From the IMG/VR virus record IMGVR_UViG_2529292832_000020: a stretch of DNA of 11,220 nucleotides. One strand, given 5' to 3'. The position numbers were made by a program, and so were the translations under genes. The notes under the pieces were generated by a model. That model was given only the letters and a program-made list of their open reading frames with translations, searched no databases and was not told the DNA's origin. The DNA is from a virus (taxonomy: Duplodnaviria > Heunggongvirae > Uroviricota > Caudoviricetes). Of the stretch, positions 1,459-11,220 are shown in pieces (within the stretch, counting starts at the first letter, position 1; every line of letters starts with the position of its first letter).

Positions 1459-2622
1459 TTACACATCATTAGTACCTTCCTTATTTTTTGACTGGGACAA
1501 ATTTGGGACCGATGGGTTTAGGATCGAGTCTATTTGCCGTGCGTGTTCGGTAAGGTGATTAGGTGCAAGGTGAGCATATCGACGAACCATTTCGATAGAC
1601 TCCCAGCCTCCCATTTCCTGTAACACTGACAACGGGACTCCGGCTTGAACCAGCCAACTTGCCCATGTGTGTCTCAAGTCGTGAAATCTGAAATCATCAA
1701 TACCAGCCCGTCTCAGCGCCGCTTTCCAGGCTGTGTTTGCGTCATACCGCATCTTCCTGACTGTTGGCGCTTTCGTTCCGTCTGGTTTGGTACAGCTTTC
1801 CTTGTACACAAATACCCAACGGTGATGATTCCCGATTTGTTTTTTCAATACGCGACATGCAGTATCATTCAGCGCAACGCCAATTGCGCGGTTTGATTTA
1901 CTCTCTTCCGGGTTTATCCATGCCACCCGGCGCTGCATATCTATTTGTTGCCATTCAAGGTTGATGATGTTCGAGCGTCTTAGGCCTGTTGCCAGTGCAA
2001 ATTCAACAACAGACTTTAATGGCTCCGGACATTCATCAATCAGCCTTTGTGCTTCATGGGGCTCCAGCCAGCGGATCCGTTTATTCTTTGGTTGGGGCAC
2101 TTTAATAATTGGTGCCTTATCCAGCATTTTCCATTCACGCTCTGCGGCTCTTAGTAGGGCCTTTATAAATGAAAGATGCGTAGCCTTCGTTGCAACGGAC
2201 GCTGGTTTTGGCGTGTATTCTGGAACAGGTTTCCCTTTTTTTCTGCATGCTTCTGCCCTGAGTTTCCAGTTTTCCTCATGACGCCGGTTCGTCATTTTCT
2301 GCATTGCTGAATAAATTTTTGATTCAGTAATGTCTCTTAGTTGCATTCCTGCGAAATGTTGAAGCCAGAATCCGATCCGGCTTTTGTCATCGTCCAGTGA
2401 TTTTTTATGTGCTTTCTCTTCAAGCCACCTGACACACGCTTCCTCGAACGTTATATCAGGTATTTCACCAAGTTTGCTGACCCGCCATGCTTCAGCCTTT
2501 AGCTTGTCATGGAGTTCTGTCGCCTGCCTTTTGTCCTTTGTTCCAAGAGACTGTTTAAATCTTTTACCGTTCGGCAATGTGAAACTGGCGTACCATATTT
2601 CACCTCTGCGGAAGAGTGACAT
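1459..2622 (-). CDS. int: tyrosine-recombinase phage integrase (P22-type Int)
   Basis: 387-aa ORF, ATG at 2620-2622 with AGGAA Shine-Dalgarno upstream. N-terminus [33 protein letters not shown] matches my memory of P22-family Int; C-terminal RHTWAS...VRRYAHL is the catalytic R/H-x-x-R/Y region. Stop codon lies 15 nt from the tRNA 3' end. Confidence 0.9.
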
Positions 2623-2849
2623 TTTCTTTCCTCTGTTATGCCATCACCCGCGCTCACCTGGACAGTATGCAGCGGAGACTGAAGAGCCGCAATGCAGGCT
2701 TGTCGTGTTGTGAGGTAAGGAGATTTATTCTTAGTGGGATCTTTGCGTGTTGCCTGAAGACGCCCTGTGCGTATCCAGTTAATGGCAGTCGGTCTGGATA
2801 TCTTGAGAAAATGACAGGCCTCATCGAGTGTGAGGCTGTATGGCTCCAT
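2499..2849 (-). CDS. xis: excisionase (P22-type Xis), about 116 aa
   Basis: Started from the internal ATG at 2847-2849 ([36 protein letters not shown]...), not the track's longer 144-aa version. This ATG shares one base with the upstream gene's stop (TAATG). The 3' end overlaps the int start. Recognised as a P22-like Xis from memory. Confidence 0.7.
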
Positions 2850-3154
2850 TATTTCACCTCTTGCTGTGACATTGTTGAAAAATGGATACCAGCTCGTTGC
2901 TGCCAGACGATCCAACCGAGAGTCATATCCCATGCCATGTATTCGTTATCGCCGTTTTTTGCTCTCCGACGATCTACTAAGTCACCGAAACGCTTTTCCA
3001 TGAATAATTCATAAGCTTCGCGTTCATCTGGTTCTACTTCCAGAGATAGGAGTGCGATTTCATAAGCACGGCGCTCAATATCGTCTCGCACGTCAAGGCT
3101 GCTGATACGCTCTTTAATTTCTTTAATCAGTTCTTTGTCGGTAAAAGTGGTCAT
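2849..3154 (-). CDS. hypothetical phage early protein (YfdT-like, 101 aa)
   Basis: ATG at 3152-3154 overlapping the upstream stop (TAATG). Length and position match my recollection of yfdT next to the excisionase in KplE1/CPS-53; no function inferable from the sequence. Confidence 0.55.
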   Translation of the reverse strand: MTTFTDKELIKEIKERISSLDVRDDIERRAYEIALLSLEVEPDEREAYELFMEKRFGDLVDRRRAKNGDNEYMAWDMTLGWIVWQQRAGIHFSTMSQQEVK

Positions 3155-3516
3155 TATGCTCCAGCCTCCGGTGCTTTTGGCATTACTGCCCAGTGAGTGA
3201 TATTGACGTTTTCAAGGTCCCCGACCTGAAATGTCCACTGCCATTCTCCGGTTTCTTTTTGTCCCCAGGTGTACCAGAGAGAACGCCAGCCAATTAGCCA
3301 GCCTTCTCCGTTAGCATCGAATAACAAAACACTTTCATTTGCTGGTGGCAGTTCAGTTGACACTGGTATTACTTTGTTTTCCTGTGCTGCACATTTAGCT
3401 TCAAGCGCATCGAATTTACGCACTAGGTATTCAGCATCTGTTTCATTTACTTTCAGATCTCGCGGTACACATCTCCCACGAAGAAACCCTTCCATTTCGA
3501 AAACATTCATGCGCAT
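3154..3516 (-). CDS. DUF551-like phage protein (YfdS-like, about 118-120 aa)
   Basis: ORF with Trp-rich core and a C-terminal ...ITHWAVMPKAPE resembling the THWMPLP signature I associate with DUF551. ATG at 3514-3516; an alternative ATG at 3508-3510 forms an ATGA overlap with the upstream stop. Confidence 0.55.
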   Translation of the reverse strand: MRMNVFEMEGFLRGRCVPRDLKVNETDAEYLVRKFDALEAKCAAQENKVIPVSTELPPANESVLLFDANGEGWLIGWRSLWYTWGQKETGEWQWTFQVGDLENVNITHWAVMPKAPEAGA

Positions 3517-4043
3517 TTGCGTAACTCCGATAACTCGTTAAAGCGTTCCATAAACATCCCGTAGGCATGGCCCGGTGCCAGTGGAATCACGTTGAACATC
3601 TCTGTTGCCGGGATACCTTCCAGTACAGGCCAGAAAGAGCCATCATCAAGCCCGAGATCGCGGCGTTCGGTTGCCAGCATGATGAGATCGGCATATTTCA
3701 CGGGCGTACTCATAACTGGGGGTAACCCGTATTTCTCACGGATTACGGCGTCTATTTTTTCTTCCATTTGTTTATAGTCAGGAAGAAGGCGTTTCAGTGG
3801 TGCGGGAATGTCCTGGCAATACGCTTCTGTTGCATCATGCATTAACGCTTCAAAAGCAAATTCCTGCGGCACCAGCTGGCTGCAAAGAACCGCATGTTGG
3901 GCGACGCTGTAGAAGTGCGAAAGATGACCGGCAAAGCGACAGATATTTGAAAGGGAAACCGCGATATCGTTAATATCGATGTCGTCTTTATTTATCTTGT
4001 CATAATAAAAATGCTTCCCGGAAAAAGTTTTAATAAATGACAT
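3507..4043 (-). CDS. HD-domain phosphohydrolase, probable 5'-deoxynucleotidase (YfdR-like, 178 aa)
   Basis: The track ORF starts at a GTG (4070); I place the start at the ATG at 4041-4043, preceded by GGAG 6 nt upstream. HD-domain residues are visible (VAQHAV..., ...LMHDATEAY). Matches the length I recall for K-12 YfdR. Confidence 0.78.
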   Translation of the reverse strand: MSFIKTFSGKHFYYDKINKDDIDINDIAVSLSNICRFAGHLSHFYSVAQHAVLCSQLVPQEFAFEALMHDATEAYCQDIPAPLKRLLPDYKQMEEKIDAVIREKYGLPPVMSTPVKYADLIMLATERRDLGLDDGSFWPVLEGIPATEMFNVIPLAPGHAYGMFMERFNELSELRKCA

Positions 4044-5060: not shown

Positions 5061-5423
5061 TTAACGACCTGCTGCGCGGAGTTTTCCGTCAGGTTCACCG
5101 GCAAGAGTCAGTAATTGTCCTTGGTCTTCCTGCAGAATAGTCAGGCGACCACCGCGATTGACATACATCGGCGTTTCGGTGGTGTCTTCTTCGGAAATTT
5201 TCCCGCGGTTAGTCGGGCGAACATATGAGAGTTTGTGTTTGATTTTCACTCGGTTCTCATCAAACGGTTCGATTTCCAGGTTGAGCGAGACCTTACCTTT
5301 GGTTTTCGTGTTCATCACACCGGAAGCGACTTCACTGAGAACTGCGCCGATTTTGGTTTCAAATACGCCGCCGTCCAGCTCCCCGATAAATGCCTGCACA
5401 TCAGTACTGCGTTCGCTAGCCAT
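5061..5423 (-). CDS. hypothetical phage early protein (YfdP-like, 120 aa)
   Basis: The track's 226-aa ORF has a Cys/Trp/Arg-rich non-protein-like N-terminal extension. I start at the internal ATG at 5421-5423 (MASERSTDVQAFIGELDGG...), which has a GAGGAG Shine-Dalgarno 7 nt upstream and gives 120 aa. Confidence 0.68.
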   Translation of the reverse strand: MASERSTDVQAFIGELDGGVFETKIGAVLSEVASGVMNTKTKGKVSLNLEIEPFDENRVKIKHKLSYVRPTNRGKISEEDTTETPMYVNRGGRLTILQEDQGQLLTLAGEPDGKLRAAGR

Positions 5424-5561
5424 TTTGCTGCTCCTCATCATATCGACCCTGCAAGGTCGGTTAGTTTCTCCACAAAACAGAGAAGAACACCTGCGGTGAC
5501 TGCCGCCCGGATGGATTGGGTTATGAGCCCGTCGTCCGGTGATGCTCTTCTCTGTTTTGTA

Positions 5562-5605
5562 AAAAGGACGGTACCAGCCGGAAGCAAGGGTACAAGCTGG
5601 TACCG
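5562..5605 (-). terminator. candidate intrinsic terminator or attenuator on the minus strand, upstream of the early-left operon
   Basis: On the minus strand, a 10-bp perfect stem (plus-strand CGGTACCAGC at 5569-5578 and GCTGGTACCG at 5596-5605) with a 17-nt loop is followed within 2 nt by UUUUU (plus-strand A-run 5561-5565). The large loop weakens the call. Confidence 0.35.
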
Positions 5606-5827
5606 CCAAGACTACACACAGCATAAAGTTGTGGTGCCGGGTGCCTCCCGGTGCCTGGCGAAGGTTGTACACCAGACGGGTGGGTATCCACAGAAGGTCG
5701 ACTGTCAGCCTCAACCTTAACCCGCGTGCGCTGAGCCGCATTCACCACAACGCTAAGGATTCTCTCTGGTTGAAAATACTTAGCTGTTATGTGCCTGCTT
5801 TTAGCCACATCAGGCGAGGTGGACCTG

Positions 5828-5866
5828 GTTATTCCCCAACAACAAGGATTCGGTATAATCTGGATA
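5828..5866 (+). promoter_or_regulatory. candidate promoter of the AT-rich insert operon (consensus -10 TATAAT, weak -35)
   Basis: Exact TATAAT at 5854-5859, about 30 nt upstream of the AGGAAGGA ribosome-binding site of micro-ORF A. No good -35 (ATTCCC/TTCCCC). Flanked by direct repeats CCCAACAACAAGG (5835-5847) and CCCAACAACAGG (5868-5879). Confidence 0.35.
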
Positions 5867-5891
5867 TCCCAACAACAGGTAGGAAGGAAAT

Positions 5892-5975
5892 ATGTACGTA
5901 GATAGCAATGAAAAATTTCATGTTCCGGTAAATCAGAGACCAGCACCGATCCCTGAGCCGAAACCTGAAATGTAA
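5892..5975 (+). CDS. micro-ORF A, 27-aa proline-rich peptide (MYVDSNEKFHVPVNQRPAPIPEPKPEM)
   Basis: ATG at 5892 preceded by AGGAAGGA; stop TAA at 5973-5975, 10 nt before the membrane-protein ATG. Paralogous to micro-ORFs B and C with synonymous codon differences. Too short for the supplied ORF track. Confidence 0.4.
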   Translation: MYVDSNEKFHVPVNQRPAPIPEPKPEM

Positions 5976-5985
5976 GGGAATAGAG

Positions 5986-6465
5986 ATGACTCGAGACGAT
6001 CTAGCATTCGATATTCATTATTCTTTCTTTCTTGAGAAAATGAATTACACCCTTTTAAATCGGATAGACAAGAGCATAACTCTTGTTCTCATTGTCTTGG
6101 GCTTTTCTGTTTTTGCGCCATATAGCAATATGTTTATTTTTGGCGCATCTGTAGCTATTTTGTCGGTGCTTCAATTGGTATACCAATTTGGGCAGGAAGC
6201 TGGCTTATCAAAGGAACAGATGCGACAGTATAAAAGGTTGATTGTTGAGTTTTCCTCCCTTTCTGATGACGAACTACGCACTCGGTTTTTAAAGGTTCAA
6301 GACGCTGATAGTAATCCATGGAGATCTTTACAAGATGCTGCGTTCAAACGGACCTGTATTGCGCTGGGACGTGTTGATGAGTCAGAAATATCATTCATGC
6401 ATAGCGTTATCGCATGGTTTGCTGGAGATTTGCCTCGGTCAAAAAGGTGTAATAATGACAAATAG
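5986..6465 (+). CDS. two-transmembrane membrane protein of unknown family (159 aa); candidate exclusion/defence effector
   Basis: ATG at 5986. Two hydrophobic helices (ITLVLIVLGFSVFAPY and MFIFGASVAILSVLQLVYQFG) separated by a 3-residue turn, then a charged soluble C-terminal region of about 95 aa. Opposite strand to all neighbouring phage genes, AT-rich, with its own -10 and terminator. Confidence 0.75.
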   Translation: MTRDDLAFDIHYSFFLEKMNYTLLNRIDKSITLVLIVLGFSVFAPYSNMFIFGASVAILSVLQLVYQFGQEAGLSKEQMRQYKRLIVEFSSLSDDELRTRFLKVQDADSNPWRSLQDAAFKRTCIALGRVDESEISFMHSVIAWFAGDLPRSKRCNNDK

Positions 6466-6571
6466 AATTCCCATAATCCCTAACCATGTACCTCCAAAGC
6501 CCAGACCACCATCACCAAAGTCACACAGGCTTTATGAGTATGAATTAATAATGGATTCTATATTGAGATGA
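6455..6571 (+). CDS. micro-ORF B, 38-aa proline-rich peptide (MTNRIPIIPNHVPPKPRPPSPKSHRLYEYELIMDSILR)
   Basis: ATG at 6455 with AAGGTG 5 nt upstream; overlaps the last 11 nt of the membrane-protein gene in another frame. Shares the HVP...PRPPSP core with A and C. Confidence 0.35.
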   Translation: MTNRIPIIPNHVPPKPRPPSPKSHRLYEYELIMDSILR

Positions 6572-6575
6572 CCAA

Positions 6576-6665
6576 ATGAATGCATTTATATATACATGGA
6601 AAGAGGATCATATACCCTTAAAACCTCGTCCTTCACCGCCAGAACCGAAGCCAAAATCCCGTTAA
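6576..6665 (+). CDS. micro-ORF C, 29-aa proline-rich peptide (MNAFIYTWKEDHIPLKPRPSPPEPKPKSR)
   Basis: ATG at 6576, 5 nt after the ORF B stop; stop TAA at 6663-6665, about 30 nt before the terminator. Core HIPLKPRPSPPEPKP aligns with A (HVPVNQRPAPIPEPKP) using different codons (R as CGT vs AGA; P, E, K synonymous changes). Confidence 0.35.
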   Translation: MNAFIYTWKEDHIPLKPRPSPPEPKPKSR

Positions 6666-6693
6666 GTGTTGGGGATCTCCAGATTGTTAAAGA

Positions 6694-6722
6694 GCGAAGC
6701 GTCCTATAGGGCGCTTTTTTGT
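6694..6722 (+). terminator. rho-independent terminator of the insert operon
   Basis: GC-rich hairpin GCGTCC-TATA-GGGCGC (6699-6714, one G-U pair) followed by TTTTTTGTT (6715-6723) on the plus strand, directly after micro-ORF C. Confidence 0.6.
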
Positions 6723-6805
6723 TGCTAACGAATCATCCTGGACTTCATATGCCCCAGGCGGCTACTTCGTGGGCGTCCTGCCTGTTCGTTGTTTCGCTTG
6801 GGTAC

Positions 6806-6833
6806 ATTATGTATCTCAAAGGTACATTGTCAA
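6806..6833 (-). promoter_or_regulatory. candidate leftward early promoter (PL-like) with an operator-like palindrome in the spacer
   Basis: Minus strand reads TTGACA (plus 6828-6833), a 16-nt spacer, then CATAAT (plus 6806-6811). The spacer contains ATGTAC-N7-ATACAT (plus 6809-6827), one mismatch from the OR palindromes. Lies immediately downstream of the repressor terminator. Confidence 0.45.
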
Positions 6834-6872: not shown

Positions 6873-7547
6873 TTAGGCTTTGATTTTGTATCTTCTTGGT
6901 TTTCCTGAGAAAATCACTGTACCAATTATAGAGCAATTACCGTTGATCTTAATGTAAGGCTCAGGCCAGTTTGGGTTTAACGCTTTGAGATAACGCTGTG
7001 TCCCATCTTCTATCAACCTTTTGAAGGTGGTTTCACCTGTATCGTGCATCAATGCAATAACGTCGTCACCGTGGCAGGCAGGTACTTCAGGATCGACAAA
7101 AATCATGTCTCCCGGGCGGTACTCATCAATCATTGAATCACCTATCACCCGCAAGATATAAGTCATTTCCCCACAGGGTACAGGGCAGGGATACGTTTCT
7201 GCTGTGCTCAAATCAACCTCAGAATATCCAACTTCTTTCCATGCTCCGGCCTGTACCCATGATATGACAGGGACTAATGTGATTTGTTTATTAGTGATTG
7301 AAACATCAGGTTTTTTTGTGATGTTCGTTGTCTGGTGTTCTTGATCGAGCCATCCGACAGGCAGGTCGAAACATTTTTCGATGTGTCGTGCCATGCTGTC
7401 ACCGATATTTTTAGTAGCACCATCTCCCATAAACCTGCTGGTCTGGGTTGGCTCGCGATCAATCATAGTGGCAAAGGAAGAATTCCCGCCAACACCATCT
7501 CTCAGTTTTCTGGCGTTAGACCGCCGGATGTCATGGATTGTTTTCAT
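6873..7547 (-). CDS. CI/C2-type prophage repressor (N-terminal DNA-binding domain plus C-terminal S24 LexA-like peptidase domain)
   Basis: 224-aa ORF, ATG at 7545-7547 with no Shine-Dalgarno (consistent with a leaderless transcript, as for lambda cI from PRM). S24 motifs are visible (ILRVIGDSM with catalytic Ser; Lys in ...TFKRLIEDG...). The C-terminal ...LNPNWPEPYIKINGNCSIIG resembles P22 C2 as I recall it. Confidence 0.88.
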   Translation of the reverse strand: MKTIHDIRRSNARKLRDGVGGNSSFATMIDREPTQTSRFMGDGATKNIGDSMARHIEKCFDLPVGWLDQEHQTTNITKKPDVSITNKQITLVPVISWVQAGAWKEVGYSEVDLSTAETYPCPVPCGEMTYILRVIGDSMIDEYRPGDMIFVDPEVPACHGDDVIALMHDTGETTFKRLIEDGTQRYLKALNPNWPEPYIKINGNCSIIGTVIFSGKPRRYKIKA

Positions 7548-8774: not shown

Positions 8775-8794
8775 AGGTCGGTCATGAGCACTAA
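8615..8794 (+). CDS. hypothetical small protein from a TTG start (59 aa), or the C-terminal part of a frameshifted gene
   Basis: Open frame with AAGGAG 8 nt upstream of TTG at 8615; translation [59 protein letters not shown] has balanced composition. Overlaps the O-like start by 11 nt. Below the track's length threshold. Confidence 0.3.
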
Positions 8795-9740
8795 ATTAAC
8801 CGGCTATGTATGGGATGGTTGCGCTGCATCAGGCATGAAGTTATCCAGCGTGGCAATTATGGCCCGCCTGGCTGATTTCAGTAATGACGAAGGTGTGTGC
8901 TGGCCATCAATTGAAACCATTGCCCGTCAGATTGGAGCGGGGATGAGTACCGTCAGAACGGCTATCGCACGGCTGGAAGCAGAAGGCTGGTTAACGCGTA
9001 AGGCGCGTCGCCAGGGTAACCGCAATGCGTCGAATGTTTATCAGCTTAACGTTGCGAAGCTTCAGGCAGCGGCATTTTCTCAACTGTCAGATTCTGACCC
9101 GTCAAAATCTGACGCATCAAAATCTGACGCATCAAAATCTGACCCGTCAAAATTTGATGCGTCGAAATCTGGCAAAAAAGCGGGTTTTCACCCGTCAGAA
9201 TCTGGCGGGGATCCGTCAGTAAAATCAAAACATGATCCGTCAGATAAAAAACCTTCTCGTCCGGACGCTTCGCAACCGGACACGCAGACGGCTGAACAGG
9301 ATTTTTTAACTCGCCATCCTGATGCGGTTGTATTCAGCCCTAAAAAGTGCCAGTGGGGGACGCAGGATGATTTGACCTGCGCACAGTGGCTCTGGAAAAA
9401 AATCATCGCCCTGTACGAGCAGGCTGCCGAATGTGACGGCGAGGTGGTTCGTCCCAAAGAACCGAACTGGACAGCCTGGGCAAACGAAATTCGCCTGATG
9501 TGTGTACAGGATGGGCGTACTCACAAACAAATCTGCGAGATGTACAGCCGCGTCAGCCGCGATCCGTTCTGGTGCCGTAACGTGCTCAGCCCGTCGAAGT
9601 TGCGGGAAAAATGGGATGAGCTTTCCCTGCGCTTATCGCCGTCCGTCAGCACGTACACCGAAAAACGCGAAGACCCGTACTTCAAAGCCAGTTACGACAA
9701 CGTGGACTACAGCCAGATCCCGGCAGGATTCAGGGGGTGA
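8784..9740 (+). CDS. phage replication initiation protein (O-like; N-terminal helix-turn-helix domain, repeat-encoded linker, C-terminal domain)
   Basis: 318-aa ORF, ATG at 8784 with GAGG upstream. N-terminal ...SVAIMARLADFSNDEGVCWPSIETIARQIGAGMSTVRTAIARLEAEGWLT is a winged-helix replication-initiator domain; the central DPSKSDASKSDASKSDPSKFDASKS repeat is encoded by tandem DNA iterons, as in lambda O. Confidence 0.8.
   Translation: MSTKLTGYVWDGCAASGMKLSSVAIMARLADFSNDEGVCWPSIETIARQIGAGMSTVRTAIARLEAEGWLTRKARRQGNRNASNVYQLNVAKLQAAAFSQLSDSDPSKSDASKSDASKSDPSKFDASKSGKKAGFHPSESGGDPSVKSKHDPSDKKPSRPDASQPDTQTAEQDFLTRHPDAVVFSPKKCQWGTQDDLTCAQWLWKKIIALYEQAAECDGEVVRPKEPNWTAWANEIRLMCVQDGRTHKQICEMYSRVSRDPFWCRNVLSPSKLREKWDELSLRLSPSVSTYTEKREDPYFKASYDNVDYSQIPAGFRG
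9084..9255 (+). repeat. iteron array, probable replication origin embedded in the initiator gene
   Basis: Six tandem 15-bp units (consensus TCAAAATCTGACGCA) from 9088 to 9177, then a short A-rich stretch GGCAAAAAAG and further CCGTCAG-containing repeats (9191-9245). Confidence 0.6.
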
Positions 9741-10944: not shown

Positions 10945-11220
10945 GTAAGCGTCAACGGAGCACCGTATTGACGCTTATTTATTGGTGAGTACTACGTTCC
11001 ATGGCAGGAGTTCGTCAACACGGTTGGAGGGCCATTCCGGCAGTACGCTCAGAATATGGCGCAGATACGCTTCCGGATCGATACCGTTCAGTCGGCAGGT
11101 GCCGATCAGCCCGTACAGCAGTGCTCCACGCTCGCCGCCGTGATCGCTACCGAAGAACACGTAATTTTTCTTTCCGAGACAGACTGCACGAAGCGCTCTT
11201 TCCGCTGTGTTATTGTCCAC
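10945..11220 (-). mobile_element. IS66-family insertion sequence, terminal about 276 bp (element continues beyond the window)
   Basis: The plus strand begins GTAAGCGTCAACGG..., i.e. the element ends ...CGCTTAC in its own orientation, which matches the IS66-family terminus as I recall it. The transposase C-terminus is encoded 31 bp inside on the minus strand. Confidence 0.7.
10975..11220 (-). CDS. IS66-family transposase (TnpC), C-terminal fragment; 5' part lies outside the window
   Basis: Translation ...DNNTAERALRAVCLGKKNYVFFGSDHGGERGALLYGLIGTCRLNGIDPEAYLRHILSVLPEWPSNRVDELLPWNVVLTNK matches the conserved C-terminus of IS66 transposases; the frame is open to the window edge. Confidence 0.85.
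   Translation of the reverse strand: MDNNTAERALRAVCLGKKNYVFFGSDHGGERGALLYGLIGTCRLNGIDPEAYLRHILSVLPEWPSNRVDELLPWNVVLTNK

Follow-up and report, generated by a model that had tools for sequence, protein, structure and literature searches.

A four-ORF accessory operon encoding a two-transmembrane protein and proline-rich micropeptides in the sieB slot of a lambdoid prophage

Lysogen-expressed defence genes occur in the immunity region of lambdoid phages, among them rexAB of lambda and bstA of BTP1 (PMC8585504), the latter reportedly a prophage defence gene next to the repressor. In lambda, rexAB lies between cI and the early-left promoter PL on the cI strand, and sieB lies past PL and N on the opposite strand; in the Rac prophage the order is kilR (minus strand), the small RNA (sRNA) KilS (minus strand), sieB (plus strand), ydaF, ydaG and racR (minus strand). 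Here we describe an accessory cassette on the plus strand, at positions 5823-6726, of an 11,220-nucleotide Caudoviricetes sequence (IMG/VR record IMGVR_UViG_2529292832_000020; the whole of this stretch is referred to as the window), in which yfdP (minus strand), an STnc100-like RNA (minus strand), the cassette (plus strand), PL and cI (minus strand) follow one another. Since PL separates cI from the cassette, the cassette is not in the rexAB position: it lies downstream of PL, beyond it as seen from cI, and on the opposite strand. A preliminary description of this DNA had placed the insert between the repressor and PL, which was an error, as PL itself lies between the repressor and the cassette. 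The same description had likened the site to the classic exclusion slot of sieB and rexAB. The sieB half of this comparison stands, for the slot is that of lambda and Rac sieB and the Rac gene has a homologous leader, while the rexAB half does not. No sequence similarity of the cassette to RexAB or BstA was found (no PADLOC match).

SieB (lambda, P22 and Rac; PF14163, phrog_6399) is the closest described system in position, sharing with the cassette the slot past PL and an orientation opposite to that of the early-left operon. It is similar in size to the protein described below and, like it, has a membrane-anchored N-terminal part, and in Rac an sRNA adjoins it on the PL strand (KilS, matched here by the STnc100-like RNA). 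A precedent is P22 sieB, which according to PMC7067206 is under the control of an antisense RNA. The second system to be considered is that of the SLATT two-transmembrane effectors (Burroughs et al. 2015), SLATT being the effector of DRT10/UG17 (bioRxiv 10.64898/2026.04.29.721553). A lysogen-expressed moron in the sieB slot with a two-transmembrane effector is already known. What appear to be undescribed are the leader shared by different cargoes of the slot and the conserved proline-rich micropeptide partners of the membrane protein. We tentatively propose, being nearer to undecided than to convinced, that the operon encodes a lysogen-expressed abortive-infection or exclusion effector that is gated by proline-rich peptides and silenced from PL on induction.

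An accessory operon in a swappable slot

The genes on either side of the cassette, yfdP on the left (5061-5423) and the LexA-type repressor cI/ymfK on the right (6873-7547), are both on the minus strand, opposite to the open reading frame (ORF) of 159 codons at 5986-6465. The GC content of the cassette is 40.6%, against 54.2% in the left flank (5424-5829), 44.9% in the PL region and 44.7% in cI. In BLAST comparisons with relatives, homology to SfV was lost after 5822 and returned at 6727, and homology to PhiR29_1 was lost after 5877 and returned at 6667. The earlier account of an insert at 5830-6725, AT-richer than its flanks and carrying a gene opposed to its neighbours, was thus accurate in its coordinates. 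It had presented the insert as the operon of a single protein, however, and in this it has to be revised, because three proline-rich micro-ORFs had been overlooked. The cassette is a self-contained accessory operon of four ORFs in a swappable slot of a lambdoid prophage, and consists, in order, of the slot promoter/leader, a 27-residue proline-rich peptide, the 159-residue two-transmembrane protein, proline-rich peptides of 38 and 29 residues, and a terminator. The intrinsic terminator (6696-6722, plus strand) was called by the terminator scan as a 9-bp stem, GAAGCGTCC/GGGCGCTTT, at 6696-6717 followed by a T run, in agreement with the terminator previously placed at 6694-6722. It sits within 6667-6725, a stretch in common with PhiR29_1 despite the different cargo of that phage.

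PL was called by the promoter scan at 6833-6806 on the minus strand, as TTGACA and CATAAT separated by 16 nt (11 of 12 matches), and operator-like GGTACATT motifs are repeated there. This strong leftward promoter, which the cassette had rightly been said to converge on at 6806-6833, would drive antisense transcription through the whole cassette. The cI terminator (6861-6842, minus strand) lies immediately upstream of PL. The gap between PL and the cassette (6726-6805) measures ~80 nt and contains no N-like antiterminator ORF. Between PL and yfdP, an sRNA-type terminator at ~5566-5620 on the minus strand stands in the path of early-left transcription.

Approximately 100 nt ahead of the first cassette ORF align with the region upstream of Rac sieB. 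The conserved promoter/leader of the slot (5823-5880, plus strand) has the consensus TATTCCCCAACAACAAGGATTCGGT(A)TAATCTGGATATCCC(C)AACAACA, and ~55 nt of it, the stretch CTATTCCCCAACAACAAGGATTCGGT-TAATCTGGATATCCCCAACAACA, are invariant in E. coli, Pseudescherichia, Sodalis, Atlantibacter, Pectobacterium and Klebsiella, and also in PhiR29_1. In PhiR29_1 the leader precedes the plus-strand gene of a 168-residue coiled-coil/zinc-ribbon protein (phrog_1244), and in SfIV (SfIV_36) and Kati it precedes that of a 144-residue protein (phrog_5286), likewise on the plus strand. SfV has no leader, its homology ending at 5822; in SfV and mEp460 the slot is filled by genes on the minus strand (the 97-residue orf33 in SfV), and in phage cdtI it is without a cargo gene. 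Because one leader precedes unrelated cargo in different phages, the sieB slot is a site of cargo exchange at which promoter/leader and terminator stay constant. A riboswitch or other structured 5' leader on the plus strand was considered and rejected (fold z-score +0.6, no Rfam match).

The operon had been credited with its own consensus -10 element at 5854, a claim that held in part. TATAAT is present at 5854-5859 and makes a promoter plausible, but there is no good -35 element, the nearest by eye being a weak TTCCCC at 5832-5837 (three of six positions, 16-nt spacer), and the promoter scan called no full promoter at this site. The perfect TATAAT is due to the insertion of a single A into the otherwise conserved leader, which elsewhere reads GGT-TAATCTGG. 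It was found only with this exact allele of the 159-residue protein, in 11 of 58 viral contigs, the others having G[T/G/A/C]TAAT. The inserted A may be a promoter-up change.

To gauge the distribution of the cassette, we took its cargo as 5881-6666 and surveyed 5426 complete E. coli genomes. The cargo was found in 52 of these, at ≥99.4% identity, and the flanks in 2895, so that it behaves as a presence/absence cassette, as had been suspected, and not as a core gene. It is absent from ~98% of prophages with the same backbone, occurs with different repressors, and was never on plasmids (no plasmid match). The flanking region, with the STnc100-like RNA, was present in ~53% of the complete E. coli genomes. 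E. coli AH04 carries a 67%-identical allele in which the order of the four ORFs is kept; downstream of it comes one more plus-strand gene (2920-3810 of the extracted locus), encoding a 296-residue BRCT-domain protein that matches the PADLOC candidate PDC-S48 (2.4e-7), a further stacking of cargo in the slot. In E. coli ET479 (2501-3626 of the extracted locus) an insertion of the IS5-like element ISKpn26 immediately 3' of the upstream micro-ORF has removed the remainder of the cassette.

Unrelated lambdoid prophages from Pectobacterium, Klebsiella, Salmonella, Cronobacter and Leclercia, with different early genes and repressors, also have homologues of the membrane protein in the same position, between early-left genes and repressor and opposite to them in strand. 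Other homologues occur as morons within the early operon of P2/186-like prophages such as Fels-2, again on the opposite strand, and one is an opposite-strand moron of a Mu-like prophage. In Fels-2 (NC_010463, ~30253-30801) a 152-residue homologue and an upstream proline-rich ORF lie on the strand opposite to the early operon; the record annotates neither of them and calls the opposite-strand STM2733.1 over the same DNA.

The two-transmembrane protein and its family

The 159-residue protein (5986-6465, plus strand) begins with M-[TNS]-R-D-D, a start that is conserved among 32 aligned homologues. Its sequence has hydrophobic stretches at about residues 27-53 and 47-69 with a five-residue loop, A-P-Y-S-N, and continues into a charged helical region. 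An AlphaFold2 (AF2) model with a mean predicted local distance difference test score (pLDDT) of 79 was all-helical, with helices at residues 3-43, 49-66, 68-87, 94-105, 114-127 and 137-145, of which the first two form a tight hairpin. An N-terminal amphipathic helix thus passes into the first transmembrane helix, followed by the loop, the second transmembrane helix and a helical C-terminal domain ending in an A-G-D-L-P motif. Hydrophobicity and model agree with the layout that had been recognized before, namely a short N-terminal helix, two closely spaced transmembrane helices and a charged C-terminal region. This topology would put the C-terminal domain in the cytosol and both termini in the cytoplasm. 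Invariant or nearly invariant positions in the close set are Y12-S13, E17, R26, D28, G39, G53, Q63, Y66, D108, P111, W112, A119 and G147-x-x-P150.

The protein belongs to phrog_6315, to which PHROGs assigns no function (a full-length match, E = 2.8e-51, spanning residues 2-151 of 152 profile positions), and the distant P2-like and Mu-like homologues matched the same family at 1.4e-27 and 3.9e-25. A word-indexed search returned 78 relatives, all from Enterobacterales, and a full hidden Markov model search returned 254 clusters at 50% identity, nearly all of them stand-alone proteins of 150-180 residues, with members reaching Gilliamella, Regiella, Photobacterium and Snodgrassella. A profile search of genome contigs gave three loci. 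The window protein had no match in Pfam, NCBIfam or PADLOC, and scans of these three collections with the four ORFs and up to 113 relatives yielded no informative family. The caution of the preliminary description, that the sequence cannot be assigned to SieB or SLATT, is upheld by these scans.

Small two-transmembrane proteins include holins and antiholins, and this gene, which has a structured RNA as its neighbour, runs antisense to the early-left transcript; these properties would also suit a protein that serves the prophage's own cycle, for example in lysis timing or the control of induction. We regard such a role as very improbable. Because the gene is absent from ~98% of same-backbone prophages, a core function in the cycle is unlikely; it also lies far from the lysis genes, and the protein has a large conserved cytosolic domain, which holins lack.

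The cassette resembles sieB in slot, strand and leader; the proteins were compared directly. Pfam SieB matched neither the window protein nor any of 145 relatives, while Rac SieB, used as a control, matched it at 1.5e-31. Membership of the SieB family was therefore rejected, hhalign of the family profile against Rac SieB giving a probability of 0.4%. SieB also differs from the cassette in having no proline-rich micro-ORFs, the Rac sieB ATG following directly after the leader. Two features of P22 sieB, its internal Esc product and the sas antisense RNA, are without a demonstrated counterpart in the cassette. The SieB-type comparison made earlier hence applies to the position and not to the protein.

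The comparison with SLATT proteins, also made earlier, gave a mixed result. The membrane hairpin flanked by N- and C-terminal helices fits the SLATT layout, but none of the curated models (Pfam clan SLATT_1-6, SLATT_fungal and DUF4231) was matched significantly. The best Pfam hits, at E = 0.0095 for DUF4231 in two of 32 members and E = 0.034 for SLATT_5 in one of 32, are far below the gathering scores; 113 members gave no SLATT match at E ≤ 0.01, and 10 distant members gave none beyond DUF4231 at 0.2. The likeness comes from fold comparison and from database names. Foldseek searches of BFVD with two independent AF2 models (the window protein, pLDDT 79, and a Pectobacterium homologue, pLDDT 85) placed 10 SLATT-named proteins among the top 23 and top 24 matches, which makes SLATT the best named fold match. 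These are giant-virus proteins and the matches are weak (E = 0.014-0.6, query-normalised TM-scores of 0.30-0.60); the best match overall (E = 1.5e-3) carries no name, and no solved SLATT structure was found. Four family members are named SLATT in UniRef. The predicted fold weakly resembles, in these models, that of SLATT effectors. In one respect the family departs from them: the annotated loci are all stand-alone prophage morons, and the conserved partners of the 159-residue protein are proline-rich micropeptides instead of signal-making enzymes. We know of no proline-rich micropeptides described with SLATT proteins.

Proline-rich micropeptides encoded with the membrane protein

Three micro-ORFs accompany the membrane gene, all on the plus strand. 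The upstream one, pep1 (5892-5975), encodes the 27-residue peptide MYVDSNEKFHVPVNQRPAPIPEPKPEM, is preceded by a good Shine-Dalgarno sequence, AGGAAGGA, and ends 10 nt before the membrane-gene ATG. The first downstream one, pep2 (6455-6571), encodes the 38-residue MTNRIPIIPNHVPPKPRPPSPKSHRLYEYELIMDSILR, and from its ATG it shares 11 nt with the end of the membrane gene, being read there in the +1 frame. The second, pep3 (6576-6665), encodes the 29-residue MNAFIYTWKEDHIPLKPRPSPPEPKPKSR and is identical in the divergent AH04 allele. The motif H-x-P-P-x-P-R-P-P-x-P is common to all three. Since pep1 stops 10 nt before the membrane-gene ATG and pep2 starts within the end of that gene, the ORFs appear packed for translational coupling, and their spacing fits it.

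An upstream proline-rich ORF was found in 17 of 18 loci that we read individually (these include a Yersinia locus and two Serratia-type P2-like loci, read by eye) and in 53 of 58 IMG/VR viral contigs. In most loci its stop lies 7-11 nt from the membrane-gene ATG, usually within the Shine-Dalgarno sequence (GAC-TGA-GGT). The ORF is kept in P2-like phages whose membrane protein is 22-35% identical. Examples of the peptide are MLKADREDGDYEERHMPIRQRPPAPPKPKDEDD in Pectobacterium, MSYDYEERHMPPFKRPEPPPKPDDSD in Klebsiella, MSDSDNFHVLPRPAPAPKPEPGQDKK in Fels-2, ...VPNHLNPKPIRPTPPPPSTPSDGGKK in a Providencia phage, and MNKCFCIDDVKHHVPHRQYDEPAIPEKSREDQDEKE in P2-like prophages with a membrane protein at 22-26% identity. 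Across lambdoid and P2/186-like phages, the peptide and the membrane protein form an old conserved unit of different temperate-phage types. Over 13 core codons from nine loci, the proportions of synonymous (pS) and nonsynonymous (pN) differences were 0.76 and 0.25, giving pN/pS = 0.33, and the core uses AGA, AGG or CGA for arginine and all four codons for proline. Because of this ratio and the varied arginine and proline codons, the upstream peptide itself, and not a C-rich RNA motif, is judged to be under selection.

At least one downstream proline-rich ORF was present in 54 of 58 viral contigs, with up to three per locus, and counterparts of pep2 were found in Klebsiella, Sodalis, Salmonella, Cronobacter and Pseudescherichia. 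The downstream core reads H-[VIA]-P-P-x-P-R-P-P-x-P. Its third codon positions take all four bases and its first and second positions are nearly fixed, a test that is partly circular because the sequences were chosen by motif. In a Pectobacterium locus (P0022) the membrane protein carries the motif as an in-frame C-terminal extension, and in the AF2 model of this homologue the proline-rich tail has a pLDDT of 76 versus 51-57 for the preceding linker, which hints that the tail may dock on the protein.

The pep2-type overlap with the membrane gene was in the +1 frame and A-rich in all six overlapping loci examined. In the window, 54 open codons in the +1 frame lead up to the pep2 ATG, and a +1 slip at AAA-AGG (6442-6447; AGG is a rare arginine codon) could fuse residues 1-153 to pep2. 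As this site is not conserved, we leave the fusion as speculation.

The main rival explanation for the peptides is that the proline-rich ORFs act in cis only. The upstream leader would set translation by termination-reinitiation or ribosome pausing, the downstream ORFs would be duplicated leaders or features of the mRNA end, and the membrane protein alone would be the exclusion or abortive-infection effector. The stop codon in or next to the Shine-Dalgarno sequence, at a near-constant 7-11 nt from the ATG, speaks for this explanation, as do the proline-rich core, which always falls within the final third of the upstream ORF, and the PP or PPP runs in many versions (RPPAPPKP, RPEPPPKP, TPPPPS). 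On the other hand, the copies 3' of the membrane gene precede no further gene, and in Pectobacterium the motif is fused to the membrane protein. The conserved histidine and arginine, together with P2-like versions that have no consecutive prolines, suggest a binding motif instead of a stall site, and there is no conserved RNA structure at the junction for a ribosome to open. We consider it doubtful that a role in cis is the whole explanation, though it deserves serious weight. Two specific forms of control fared less well. A conserved hairpin hiding the membrane-gene ribosome-binding site was rejected, RNAalifold predicting no pairs at the junction of pep1 and the membrane gene. A pure EF-P/polyproline stall role was weakened, and is argued against because many upstream peptides are without consecutive prolines, for example the P2-like HHVPHRQYDEPAIPEK.

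The cores PKPRPPSP and PRPRPPAP resemble what we take to be the PRPP-type cores of the insect peptides apidaecin and oncocin, a resemblance of value as a lead only. With several peptide copies per operon, the peptides could in principle be the active agents, as intracellular analogues of proline-rich antimicrobials acting on the ribosome exit tunnel or DnaK, and the membrane protein their regulator, immunity factor or exporter. We give this idea hardly any credence, as chance resemblance is expected among short low-complexity sequences, the P2-like upstream peptides have no PRPP core, and constitutive translation inhibitors would be costly in a lysogen.

A membrane toxin with small labile partners would also resemble a toxin-antitoxin layout, and no defence-system model matches the operon. 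In the type I system hok/mok, a membrane toxin is translationally coupled to an upstream ORF, and the cassette shares with it a ribosome-binding site of the membrane protein that is overlapped by the end of an upstream ORF, and the availability of antisense transcription, here from PL. Unlike a hok/mok-type toxin, which is hydrophobic and has fewer than 60 residues, the 159-residue protein has about three times the size and, in the AF2 model, a folded cytosolic domain; the upstream ORF of the cassette ends before the coding region begins, and the peptide that it encodes is conserved in sequence. A dedicated antisense RNA against this ORF was not found, the promoter scan placed no antisense promoter inside the cassette, and the neighbouring RNA at 5558-5781 does not overlap the cassette ORFs. 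An addiction or prophage-maintenance unit of this kind, or a membrane factor of lysogenic conversion, in either case playing no part against other phages, is in our view improbable: the module is consistently in the slot occupied by sieB in Rac and lambda, its distribution is rare and patchy, it can be swapped for other cargo, and it is a moron of three temperate-phage types with no plasmid match. Since many such toxin-antitoxin systems act in abortive infection, the addiction and exclusion readings overlap.

Proposed mechanism and wider setting

In the peptide-gated effector model that we prefer, the operon would be transcribed in the lysogen from its own promoter, and on prophage induction PL transcription would run antisense through it and silence it. 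The membrane protein would act as a SLATT-like effector whose two termini face the cytoplasm, and the proline-rich peptides would serve as polyproline-type ligands of its cytosolic C-terminal domain, keeping it inactive. The upstream peptide would in addition set the amount of effector through termination-reinitiation coupling. Since the peptides are short and their synthesis would keep pace with that of the effector, a phage-caused block of host translation or transcription could free the effector, as could a phage product that competes for the peptides. Once free, it would oligomerise and depolarise or permeabilise the inner membrane, and growth of the superinfecting phage would be aborted in the manner of SieB or Abi systems. 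That this amounts to a new kind of peptide-gated abortive-infection or toxin-antitoxin system, in which micropeptides close a SLATT-like pore and phage takeover opens it, is possible but rather unlikely.

Several observations weigh against the peptide-gated model. The promoter is a -10 match only, and its perfect form is specific to one allele. More than 120 family members gave no significant Pfam or NCBIfam SLATT match, and about 80 loci contained no nucleotide- or DNA-synthesising partner (SMODS, SLOG or reverse transcriptase). PADLOC-DB v2 gave no match at E ≤ 1 for any of the four ORFs, and literature searches found no paper or experiment on the family or the peptides. The pairing of peptide and membrane protein also has exceptions, as one Mu-like locus is without the upstream ORF and Atlantibacter is without a downstream peptide. 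Finally, the binding of peptide to effector is inferred from one fusion and one pLDDT trend.

The remainder of the window is that of a prophage at thrW. It starts within proA (1-1254) and includes the tRNA-Thr(CGU) gene thrW (1369-1444), followed by the integrase (1459-2622, minus strand) and a minus-strand early-left block comprising yfdT, yfdS, yfdR, yfdQ and yfdP, names that were taken from near-identical E. coli genomes. Beyond the repressor, cro/ymfT, ymfL and replication genes are on the plus strand, and the backbone is of the type of SfV, SfIV, cdtI, e14 and CPS-53. Directly left of the cassette, on the PL strand and thus as the positional counterpart of KilS in Rac, lies the STnc100-like structured RNA (5558-5781, minus strand). 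Its match to Rfam RF02076, at 41.1 bits (E = 1.6e-7), falls just short of the gathering score of 47; the fold z-score is -2.47, and a DicF-like 3' hairpin with a U run is located at 5566-5620. The pseudogene that RefSeq places over this RNA ("frameshifted hypothetical protein", 5438-5748) is probably a misannotation. The replication-initiator-like protein encoded at 8784-9740 (plus strand) contains a run of near-identical short repeats, SDPSKSDASKSDASKSDPSKFDASKS, that recalls the origin iterons in lambda O-type genes. At the window end, the ORF at 10975-11220 (minus strand) encodes what we take to be the C-terminal part of an IS66-family transposase, and the prophage may be interrupted there.

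These results identify a family of at least 254 sequence clusters that spans lambdoid, P2/186-like and Mu-like temperate phages and has neither a curated model nor a described function. Its proline-rich companion ORFs, of 20-50 residues, are mostly skipped by annotation pipelines, and the sieB slot is a place to look for more lysogen-expressed genes. How a SLATT-like effector is held off and triggered has been called open in the work on DRT10 (bioRxiv 10.64898/2026.04.29.721553). If the proposed mechanism is true, SLATT-type effectors, whose signals known to date are nucleotides or DNA, would here have a protein ligand instead, and the companion ORFs would represent a widespread class of unannotated phage micropeptides. 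If the peptides do gate the membrane protein, the operon would offer a simple and genetically tractable case of how such an effector is held off and triggered.

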